A stretch of 64,000 bases of DNA, taken from sequence record PQ741806.1; one strand, given 5' to 3'. The notes below the pieces were generated by a model. The model made no database searches. It was not told the DNA's origin and saw only the letters and a program-made list of their open reading frames with translations. Both the position numbers and the translations under genes were made by a program. Shown piece after piece: positions 30,881 through 31,212 of the stretch (positions are counted from its first letter, which is position 1; every line of letters begins with the position of its first letter). Source of the stretch: Pseudomonas phage Pa_AttikonH10.

Positions 30881-31212
30881 TATATCAGTTTTTACAATGG
30901 ACCACCAACGGAGCCTGGCCCGAGCCTAGCGTCATCTACAAAGCTTAACCTCCGCTCTTCTTTGTAGCATACCGGCACTAGTCTCATTTACCATCCATTG
31001 TAGTTTTTGATCACACGTTACCTTTTGAGTAACTCCTTTCGGTTAAGTGATCTATCATCCTCGTGTAGTGATAGGTCGACCTAGACTAAGTCCACTAGTC
31101 GATTACTTCACGGAACCTACTCCTAACCGTTATCACCGAAGTGAACCAGGGTCGCAGTATTAGAATCGGGATGTTACTTATTTAACATCCCTATCTACCG
31201 AGGTATTTCCTA
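30881..31212 (-). other. GC-rich, highly structured 3' untranslated region / candidate ncRNA between the stop of the 626-aa gene and its terminator
   Basis: About 45% GC versus about 37% overall. At least 5 stable local hairpins (CTACAAAG/CTTTGTAG, CTATCA/TGATAG, GGATGTTA/TAACATCC and others). No ORF. Confidence 0.35.

Follow-up and report, generated by a model that had tools for sequence, protein, structure and literature searches.

A conserved, modular structured RNA in the 3' untranslated region of the nuclear shell gene chmA of phiKZ-type phages

In a phiKZ-type jumbo phage, the segment of 332 nt that follows the nuclear shell gene chmA is a 3' untranslated region (3'UTR) whose RNA folds into three conserved domains, D1 to D3, placed before an intrinsic terminator. 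The fold is supported by compensatory base changes across two genera of phages, and its domains can be exchanged independently of one another. We tentatively propose that this is an undescribed functional structured RNA, most likely acting in cis on its own transcript. Its stabilising or regulatory role in cis, as well as any binding partner, are ones that we infer.

Genomic context and transcription of the segment

The window (the whole 64-kb stretch of DNA that was analysed) comes from a jumbo phage of the phiKZ type that infects Pseudomonas aeruginosa. A piece of 701 nt spanning the segment is 100% identical to the corresponding sequence of PaZh_1, PA_ZH1, Churi and Bobae, and 99.3% identical to that of phiKZ. 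The 626-aa gene next to the segment was identified as chmA by its 100% DNA identity to phiKZ-type phages and by the RefSeq entry PHIKZ054, annotated as 'nuclear shell protein'. The segment (30881-31212, minus strand) starts directly 3' of the chmA stop, a TAA immediately followed by TAG, and precedes the intrinsic terminator, the gene order being chmA, 332-nt segment, terminator and gp55. The first-pass annotation had placed the segment between the stop of a 626-aa gene and its terminator, and this placement was confirmed, with both the double stop and the hairpin with its U-tract located. It had also assigned the segment to the most highly expressed transcript; this has to be corrected, since the gene is chmA, an early/middle nuclear shell gene, and not a capsid gene.

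The core hairpin of the terminator, AGCGGCUCC-UUCG-GGGGCCGCU (30881-30860), is extended by a lower stem GAUA/UAUC and followed by a U-tract at 30853-30845. It has the G+C-rich hairpin, the U-tract and the mapped RNA 3' end of an intrinsic terminator. The Shine-Dalgarno sequence and ATG of gp55 are found approximately 35 nt 3' of the terminator, and the gp55 ORF (30818..29679) stops where a group I intron starts. Two of the three group I introns detected in the window (79-89 bits) are located just downstream of the segment. This genome contains many group I introns and HNH endonucleases. Across 50 kb of phiKZ annotation, long gaps without coding sequence are very rare, and the 394 nt separating chmA from gp55 form one of them; another apparent gap in the RefSeq record, after gp70, was discarded because it proved to be coding.

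Table 1. Features of the chmA-gp55 region and of the folded segment, in window coordinates. Domains and helices are those of the consensus structure of ten phages; hp, hairpin.
Feature	Position	Strand	Sequence, basis or remark
chmA (gp54, PHIKZ054, chimallin/nuclear shell protein)	31213..33093	-	626 aa; ORF list
D1	31060..31202	-	RNAalifold consensus, pair counts, covariance model
D1 closing helix	31202-31199 with 31063-31060	-	CUCG/CGAG; CCCG/CGGG in Pawinskivirus
D1 hp1	31197-31161	-	
D1 hp2	31159-31118	-	
D1 invariant junction	31117-31112	-	GGUUCC
D1 hp3	31111-31068	-	
Linker 1	31053..31059	-	GAUGAUA, single-stranded
D2	31009..31052	-	six-pair stem GAUCAC/GUGAUC around two small hairpins
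D2 inner hairpins			CC-GAAA-GG and GUUACU/GGUAAC
Linker 2	31001-31008	-	AAAAACUA
D3	30895..31000	-	long-range closing helix around one long and one short hairpin
D3 closing helix	31000-30993 with 30902-30895	-	eight pairs, CAAUGGAU/GUCCAUUG
D3 long hairpin	30985-30922	-	invariant apical AAGAGCGGAGGUUAAG
D3 short hairpin	30919-30904	-	
Linker 3	30887-30894	-	UAAAAACU
Intrinsic terminator of chmA (published T025)	30854..30886	-	sequence, consensus fold, mapped 3' end
gp55 exon 1 (non-virion RNA polymerase beta subunit)	29679..30818	-	ORF list and annotation
Group I intron	29430-29679		Rfam RF00028
Group I intron	28844-29164		Rfam RF00028
Group I intron	14703-14931		Rfam RF00028

Transcription of the region was analyzed from the published ONT-cappable-seq tables for phiKZ (Putzeys et al., PMC10914365; also issued as bioRxiv 10.1101/2023.10.13.562163), using the conversion phiKZ = 78741 - window coordinate. 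Start sites were mapped at phiKZ 44937, 45377, 45490 and 45583, all of them upstream of chmA; the next one is at 49168, with none between. In the supplement of the same study, the 3' end T025 is reported at phiKZ 47888 and typed as 'intrinsic' (-16.7 kcal/mol). By conversion it falls at approximately window 30853, the start of the U-tract. Four transcription units (TU038, TU040, TU043 and TU045) run from promoters upstream of chmA to T025, and a further one, TU041, reads through T025 to 52650 and carries gp55-gp59 (PMC10914365). Since the chmA units end at T025 and no start site lies inside the segment, the segment is a true chmA 3'UTR, with no reading frame open, as the first-pass annotation had suggested. 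On read-through transcripts it is also the leader before gp55, and these chmA read-through transcripts appear to be the only early source of gp55.

By its location in a 3'UTR, sharing the terminator of the mRNA, the segment resembles the 3'UTR-derived small RNAs. The earlier suggestion of a processed ncRNA was nevertheless not borne out by the published data. Indeed, the ONT-cappable-seq tables contain no start site, 3' end or ncRNA candidate at phiKZ 47500-47799, and no splicing at the segment in the transcription-unit tables (PMC10914365). The only two phiKZ ncRNA candidates named in the Grad-seq study (PMC8545117) are located elsewhere. An internal promoter was also considered: the AAUACUG found after hp1 resembles the TACT motif of phiKZ middle promoters, but no start was mapped there and the RNA structure spans the motif, so this candidate was rejected. 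The 3'UTR is unmentioned in the main texts of the dRNA-seq (PMC8244752) and Grad-seq (PMC8545117) studies, the antisense-oligomer (PMC12571901) and transposon (PMC12676376) screens, the 201phi2-1 transcriptome (PMC11512511) and a 2026 review (PMC13282480).

Coding potential, consensus fold and selection

The GC content of the segment is 44.0%, against a window mean of 36.9% (sd 4.6%, 332-nt windows), a value reached by only 7.5% of 332-nt windows; the chmA coding sequence itself has 47.7%. Each of the six frames of the segment contains at least five stops, and the longest open stretch is 38 codons. The two ORFs that can be drawn in it (31 and 16 aa) lose their ATG in relatives, and the small 'hypothetical protein' annotations present in some GenBank records of the region are not conserved. 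A protein-coding gene or pseudogene was therefore rejected. Thus, the GC-richness and the lack of an ORF, both reported in the first-pass annotation, hold. Compared with dinucleotide shuffles, the chmA-sense strand of the segment folds with a z-score of -3.9 with the terminator and -2.7 without it, whereas the coding controls range from -0.15 to -1.4. This thermodynamic signal alone is moderate, so that the strong evidence for structure is comparative.

A consensus structure was computed with RNAalifold from an alignment of five phiKZ-like and five Pawinskivirus sequences, representing two genera. It comprises 110 pairs in 16 helices, organised as three domains plus the terminator. The consensus fold has approximately 8 terminal hairpins, in agreement with the at least five stable hairpins counted from the single sequence; the one singled out there, GGATGTTA-CTTATT-TAACATCC, was located at 31169-31190 on the plus strand. 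Conservation and covariation in relatives, proposed in the first-pass annotation as a check, were found: standard pairing is observed in 99.6% of 1099 pair cells over the ten phages, and 8 pairs display compensatory double-sided changes. Column shuffles gave 3.3 +/- 1.1 such pairs, and none of 500 shuffles reached 8. When the 3' partners were slid by 1-3 columns, 0-1 double-changed pairs remained and pairing dropped to 32-42%. The eight double changes are independent, five of them separating the two clades and three occurring in single phages; the covariation is thus drawn from few lineages, namely two clades and singletons. G-U pairs occupy 146 cells on the chmA-sense strand and would be C-A mismatches on the opposite strand. 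Antisense pairing is therefore only 86.4%, indicating that the fold is strand-specific to the chmA sense.

The changes are spread over the domains. In D1, compensatory changes affect the closing helix, three pairs of hp1 and two pairs of hp3. In D2, an A-U pair is replaced by G-C in HPP-Temi, and a wobble change is seen in four phages. The closing helix of D3, CAAUGGAU/GUCCAUUG, is changed to CGAUGGAU/GUCCAUCG, with A-U replaced by G-C between the genera. Loops and junctions within the domains are almost invariant in the ten-phage alignment.

BLASTN with the segment matched 58 Pseudomonas phage records, at 94.6-100% identity for phiKZ-like phages and 82-83.5% for the Pawinskivirus group (PS119XW, PA1C, HPP-Temi, BRkr, HHBS36_1 and phiLBG22). 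Partial matches were also obtained, with half of the segment in phiHQ and with 45 nt in PhiPA3. D1 is 86% identical between phiKZ-like phages and Pawinskivirus, D2 91% and D3 87-95%. In the three A/U-rich linkers and in the first bases 3' of the stop, by contrast, identity between phiKZ and Pawinskivirus falls to only 25-62%. Conserved domains beside diverged linkers point to purifying selection on the domains, including their loops, and not to recent neutral transfer. The neighbouring genes are less similar: between PS119XW and phiKZ, the ChmA proteins share only 49% identity, the chmA DNA can hardly be aligned, and gp55 DNA is approximately 67-70% identical, compared with 83% for the non-coding segment. 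Co-conversion from the downstream gp55 intron was considered as a source of this high identity, but the gp55 exon that lies in between is only about 67% identical, and this origin was rejected.

Distribution and exchange of the domains

PhiPA3 has a spacer of 515 nt between chmA and gp55, retaining D1 and D2 but not D3; its 3' part is different. The two retained domains were detected by nhmmer (E = 7e-9 for D1 and 6e-4 for D2), and the D1 covariance model scored 36.9 bits (E = 7e-8). This model misplaces the 3' half of the PhiPA3 sequence and does not span an insertion of about 190 nt; therefore the PhiPA3 pair counts from the covariance alignment were not relied on. The closing helix of D1, read directly from the sequence, is retained. 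In hp1, GGGGUGUAC/GUACAUCCC replaces the GGGAUGUUA/UAACAUCCC of phiKZ, and the tip of hp2 is CUC-GAAA-GAG where phiKZ has UCAC-UUCG-GUGA. The base of hp3, GUGGUAGC/GCUAUCAC, is kept around the insertion, and the closing stem of D2 becomes GAACCAC/GUGGUUC in place of GAUCAC/GUGAUC. Hence in the D1 closing helix, hp1, the hp3 base and the D2 stems, the bases have changed yet remain complementary. The junction GUAGGUUCCGUG and the motif CACUACACGAG are common to PhiPA3 and phiKZ.

In phiHQ, ChmA and the start of gp55 are 100% identical to those of PS119XW, but about 300 nt of unrelated sequence (element B) directly follow the stop in place of D1, and the family is rejoined exactly at the start of D2, with D2 and D3 present. 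Downstream of chmA, element B recurs in Psa21, a phage of P. syringae, and part of it recurs in the Ralstonia phage RP13. In D6 and RVTF4, two close relatives of Psa21, as well as in Noxifer, only about 25-35 nt and the terminator follow chmA. Other structured 3'UTRs, of 160-245 nt, are present in 201phi2-1, Phabio and Viktualia, which carry an extra small gene after the terminator. Altogether, long chmA 3'UTRs (160-475 nt) were found in 8 of the 11 chimalliviruses examined and fall into several unrelated sequence families; the folding z-scores of chimallivirus chmA 3'UTRs range from -1.4 to -5.0, against -0.15 to -1.4 for the coding controls. Conservation of the terminator and of its flanking sequence extends to all relatives.

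The element and the genes around it do not share the same history. In ChmA and RNA polymerase, Pawinskivirus is closest to PhiPA3 (66% and 84% identity, compared with 49% and 66% to phiKZ), although its element is closest to that of phiKZ. This conflict between element tree and gene tree implies either horizontal exchange or very uneven evolutionary rates, and such a patchy distribution, in conflict with the phylogeny of the phage genomes that carry the element, is a trait shared with mobile elements. D1 and D3 have been replaced independently, which argues for autonomous domains and against a common ribozyme or aptamer fold. A fold sensing a ligand as one integrated unit was rejected on the same observation, D1 being replaced in phiHQ and D3 in PhiPA3 while the other domains persist. 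Thus, the space between the chmA stop and the terminator acts as a slot for exchangeable structured RNA modules.

D1 to D3 occur only in P. aeruginosa phages, as judged by BLASTN and the covariance model. The D1 covariance model matched phiKZ-like phages, Pawinskivirus and PhiPA3 only, with no diverged copies in 201phi2-1, Psa21, Phabio, Viktualia, Noxifer, RVTF4 or D6. The element is present as a single copy per genome, no second one being detected by nhmmer or the covariance model in the rest of the window. In IMG/VR, two motif patterns matched PhiPA3 alone and a ChmA protein search gave no match. The junction pattern gave 60 matches in metagenomes, all attributed to chance by nhmmer, and the sole match in bacterial-genome scans, in a Moorena genome, was also due to chance.

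Possible roles of the element and comparison with known systems

The segment was compared with known RNA families and mobile elements. The Rfam scan suggested in the first-pass annotation was run, and no family matched the segment, either at gathering score in the whole window or at E<=10 in the 701-nt piece. Nothing was found by Rfam downstream of chmA at seven related loci (no group I intron at E<=1), and the tRNA/tmRNA search was negative. A group I intron (RF00028) was not supported, as the segment gave no covariance-model match while the three true introns of the window were readily scored. An intron in chmA was also rejected, because ChmA ends with Tyr-stop in 11 of 11 phages whether or not the element is present. 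The MITE or insertion-sequence type was discarded too, the element being present in one copy, with no terminal repeats and no encoded mobility enzyme. Long-range pairing of the segment with the chmA 5'UTR or the start of gp55 was either no better than in shuffles or not conserved between genera. Finally, RsmA-type GGA motifs, Shine-Dalgarno-like motifs and a 'UUG-UAG' start-stop in D3, inspected by eye, were base-paired or not conserved in PhiPA3.

The cis-acting role that we favour, though tentatively, would work as follows; the stabilising 3'UTR evoked in the first-pass annotation is a possible form of it. The three modules would fold independently, separated by short A/U-rich linkers and followed by the intrinsic terminator. 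This stack of stable domains, probably bound by protein, would buffer the chmA coding region against decay in the 3'-to-5' direction, and delayed decay would suit an mRNA from which a very large protein output is needed early in infection. The structured RNA may also influence the amount of transcript, and the translation, that continues past the terminator into gp55. In other genera this position is occupied by sequences that are unrelated but well folded, as would be expected if the role depended on position. Two observations count against a cis stabiliser. The near-invariant loops are more than a passive stabiliser needs, and Noxifer, RVTF4 and D6 manage with the short sequence and the terminator described above; a terminator hairpin alone normally protects a 3' end.

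Those loops lead to a different reading, in which the RNA is a trans-acting cargo (an 'RNA moron'): interchangeable ncRNA modules riding on the very early and strong expression of chmA. Such modules could serve as a decoy or sponge for an RNA-binding protein, an RNase or a defence sensor, or as a scaffold. They would do so while still part of the mRNA, or once released by cleavage at the A/U-rich linkers. The independent swapping of modules (element B for D1 in phiHQ, a different 3' part in PhiPA3), the patchy presence of element B in Psa21 with nothing in its close relatives D6 and RVTF4, and the conflict between element and gene trees all speak for it. So do the restriction of D1-D3 to phages of one host species, P. 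aeruginosa, and the near-invariance of the loops, which suggests specific recognition. Invariant loops, host restriction and module swapping indeed fit trans cargo better than a cis role. However, neither the Grad-seq study nor the ONT-cappable-seq tables contain a discrete small RNA from the region, no internal start site was mapped, and searches for duplexes with the chmA 5'UTR or the start of gp55 gave nothing conserved. We hold this reading, the main alternative, to be rather unlikely. The arrangement of the locus, with D1-D3, then the terminator, then an essential gene without a mapped promoter, is also that of a riboswitch or attenuation leader. In that case the efficiency of T025, and so the amount of gp55-gp59, would be set by the folded RNA, perhaps together with a bound phage protein or polymerase, and the conservation of the terminator and its flanks in all relatives is in keeping with this. 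Nevertheless, by-eye inspection of the sequence revealed no mutually exclusive terminator/antiterminator pairing through which the terminator would be disrupted. The terminator forms together with D3 in both the minimum-free-energy fold and the consensus fold. Moreover, D1 and D3 are exchanged for unrelated sequence, in opposition to one integrated sensing fold, and relatives lacking the element keep the same terminator-gene layout, which makes attenuation or antitermination quite improbable.

The element might instead be selfish, an intron- or ribozyme-like mobile RNA without ORF, or a relic left by a duplicated terminator or an insertion, of no benefit to the phage. The first-pass annotation had evoked a degenerate ribozyme or intron relic. 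The neighbourhood is rich in introns and the genome in introns and HNH endonucleases, and the patchy distribution conflicts with the gene tree. In addition, the flanks of hp1 (UAGAUAGGGAUG...UUCUA) are like the D6/Psa21 terminator (UAGAUAGGAAUGG...UUCUA), a likeness that suggests a former terminator. Against this stand the lack of any Rfam intron or ribozyme match at E<=10, the uninterrupted chmA coding sequence, and the single copy with neither enzyme nor terminal repeats. Compensatory changes and conserved domains beside diverged linkers also reflect ongoing selection and not decay. We therefore give very little credence to a selfish element or relic.

Whichever role applies, chmA yields one of the earliest and most abundant transcripts in a model jumbo phage that has been studied intensively. 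Until now, the chmA mRNA has been viewed in terms of its coding sequence and promoters. An RNA appendix of 330 nt, conserved above the ChmA protein, suggests an unrecognised RNA layer, which could affect expression of the shell protein, expression of gp55 (apparently dependent on read-through) or phage-host conflict. It is conceivable, but we consider it unlikely, that the chmA 3'UTR is a dedicated site for modular RNAs of a new class, with D1-D3 as new partner-binding families, serving phage-nucleus biology or host takeover. One possibility would be a zip-code or scaffold directing chmA mRNA or its translation to the site of shell assembly around the injected genome; another would be a decoy against an RNase, an RNA-binding regulator or an RNA-sensing defence of P. 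aeruginosa. The family is narrow, its structure is well supported and it is located in a prominent gene of a model phage. D1-D3 are candidates for new Rfam families. For phiKZ engineering, plasmid complementation of chmA and antisense or Cas13 design, the chmA 3'UTR is probably not inert.

Structured 3'UTRs and 3'UTR-derived ncRNAs are already known in phages; the chmA element differs by its size, its multi-domain build, its conservation above that of an essential protein gene and its cassette-like exchange. In lambda sib retroregulation, a 3' cis element allows terminated and read-through int transcripts to be distinguished via RNase III. As at sib, the chmA structure is 3' of the coding region and both terminated and read-through transcripts exist. 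The effect of sib depends on termination versus read-through, sib being a single hairpin completed only by read-through, whereas no read-through-dependent structure was found at chmA. The HK022 put RNA is a cis-acting antiterminator of about 70 nt with two stem-loops, which acts on E. coli RNA polymerase. It is likewise a structured RNA just upstream of terminators that are read through to express downstream genes, but it has no evident sequence or structure similarity to the chmA element, and the polymerases here are phage-encoded. The group I introns of the phage's own genome (RF00028) are comparable as multi-helix RNAs of 230-320 nt, horizontally mobile among these phages. The chmA element differs from them in having no covariance-model match and no recognisable conserved core, and in being outside the coding sequence.

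Phage morons are independently acquired expression cassettes located between genes, which encode proteins and usually have their own promoter. The chmA modules resemble them as patchy, exchangeable insertions at a fixed intergenic slot beside a terminator, but have neither an encoded protein nor their own promoter. Small protein genes are also found in this slot in 201phi2-1, Phabio and Viktualia. Morons are mentioned in PMC10914365. The closest known examples are the phage 3'UTR-derived ncRNA candidates 3'UTR_PHIKZ298 of phiKZ and ncRNA1 and ncRNA2 of PAK_P3 (Gerovac et al. 2021, PMC8545117; Putzeys et al. 2024, PMC10914365). Like the chmA element, they are structured, are conserved in close relatives and come from virulent Pseudomonas phages, in which they occupy the space from a stop codon to the intrinsic terminator of the gene. 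Their length is approximately 90-210 nt, they contain one or two stem-loops, and each was seen as a discrete RNA of high abundance, whereas the chmA element, with no reported discrete species, extends over 330 nt in three domains and is conserved across genera.

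Downstream of the chmA terminator

The slot running from the terminator of chmA (the nuclear shell protein gene) to the RNA polymerase gene is also occupied by small protein genes in phages 201phi2-1, Phabio and Viktualia, and in Phabio the terminator is present in a second copy. These findings mark the site as a general hotspot for insertions. Just 3' of the terminator hairpin, the sequence (U)AUAUCUCCUUUUUUUGU is kept across genera. Its CUCCU complements the Shine-Dalgarno AGGAG of gp55 (non-virion RNA polymerase beta subunit), located about 25 nt downstream; judging from this complementarity, pairing within read-through transcripts could weakly occlude the ribosome-binding site of gp55.

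Features in the window and in loci (L) of other phages
Feature	Sequence	Position	Strand
Small ORFs annotated in chmA 3'UTR	L015	228-416 and 562-669
Small ORFs annotated in chmA 3'UTR	L017	228-416 and 561-668
Perfect palindrome UUCUUGAUCAAGAA, chmA 5'UTR	window	33115-33136	minus
Group I intron (Rfam match)	window	29430-29679	minus
Group I intron (Rfam match)	window	28844-29164	minus
Group I intron (Rfam match)	window	14703-14931	minus
Substitution cluster, D3 long hairpin	window	30922-30985
Conserved post-terminator sequence (U)AUAUCUCCUUUUUUUGU	window; L002-L011	30845-30860; equivalent positions
Element B	L004 (phiHQ)	2689-2995
Element B	L006 (Psa21)	about 4290-4560
Element B	L022 (Ralstonia phage RP13)	about 2430-2597
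Small protein gene(s), gp106	L005 (201phi2-1)	4484-5050
Small protein gene(s), gp083	L007 (Phabio)	4537-4809
Small protein gene(s)	L011 (Viktualia)	4389-4850

Untranslated regions of chmA

The palindrome lies inside GGUUCUUCUUGAUCAAGAAACC, with the early start site on its 5' side and the chmA start codon on its 3' side. Its 14-nt core is unchanged in PS119XW, though the surrounding 5'UTR differs. The palindrome may form a hairpin or serve as an operator.

In the long hairpin of D3, a folded domain of the 3'UTR, phiKZ, PaZh_1 and the window differ by about 10 clustered substitutions from SL2, PA7, T2P and W10-2, which agree with Pawinskivirus (the genus of PS119XW) across this hairpin. One substitution is compensatory (U-A to G-C) and another creates a mismatch. 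The cluster reflects either a burst of changes specific to one lineage or a small patch of recombination. GenBank records of HPP-Temi, HHBS36_1, KEN19, Bobae and PhiPizzaParty carry small "hypothetical proteins" within the 3'UTR. The ORFs concerned lack conservation in phiKZ, and the annotations are probably false gene calls.

Group I introns and element B

The three group I introns of the window scored 79-89 bits against Rfam. Two directly follow gp55 exon 1 and flank the HNH endonuclease gene gp56, and the third is inside the RNA polymerase subunit gene gp71. RefSeq phiKZ leaves 472 nt after gp70 without annotation. The same stretch is spanned in the window by a continuous 399-aa ORF (14950-16149, minus strand); the gap thus probably stems from faulty annotation of the 5' portion of gp71, which is split by an intron, and not from non-coding DNA.

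A second structured element, unannotated and designated element B, replaces the D1 domain of the 3'UTR in phiHQ. It is found downstream of chmA in Psa21, and in RP13 it stops exactly at the 5' end of a tRNA-Leu(UAA) gene. Its conserved core of about 100 nt reads …CCAUAAAGGUCUGACG…UGACCUGCCAAAGUC…CUUACGGUGAUGUAA…AAACCGUAU. Element B had no match in Rfam; its AAUUGCAGG motif recalls group I introns.
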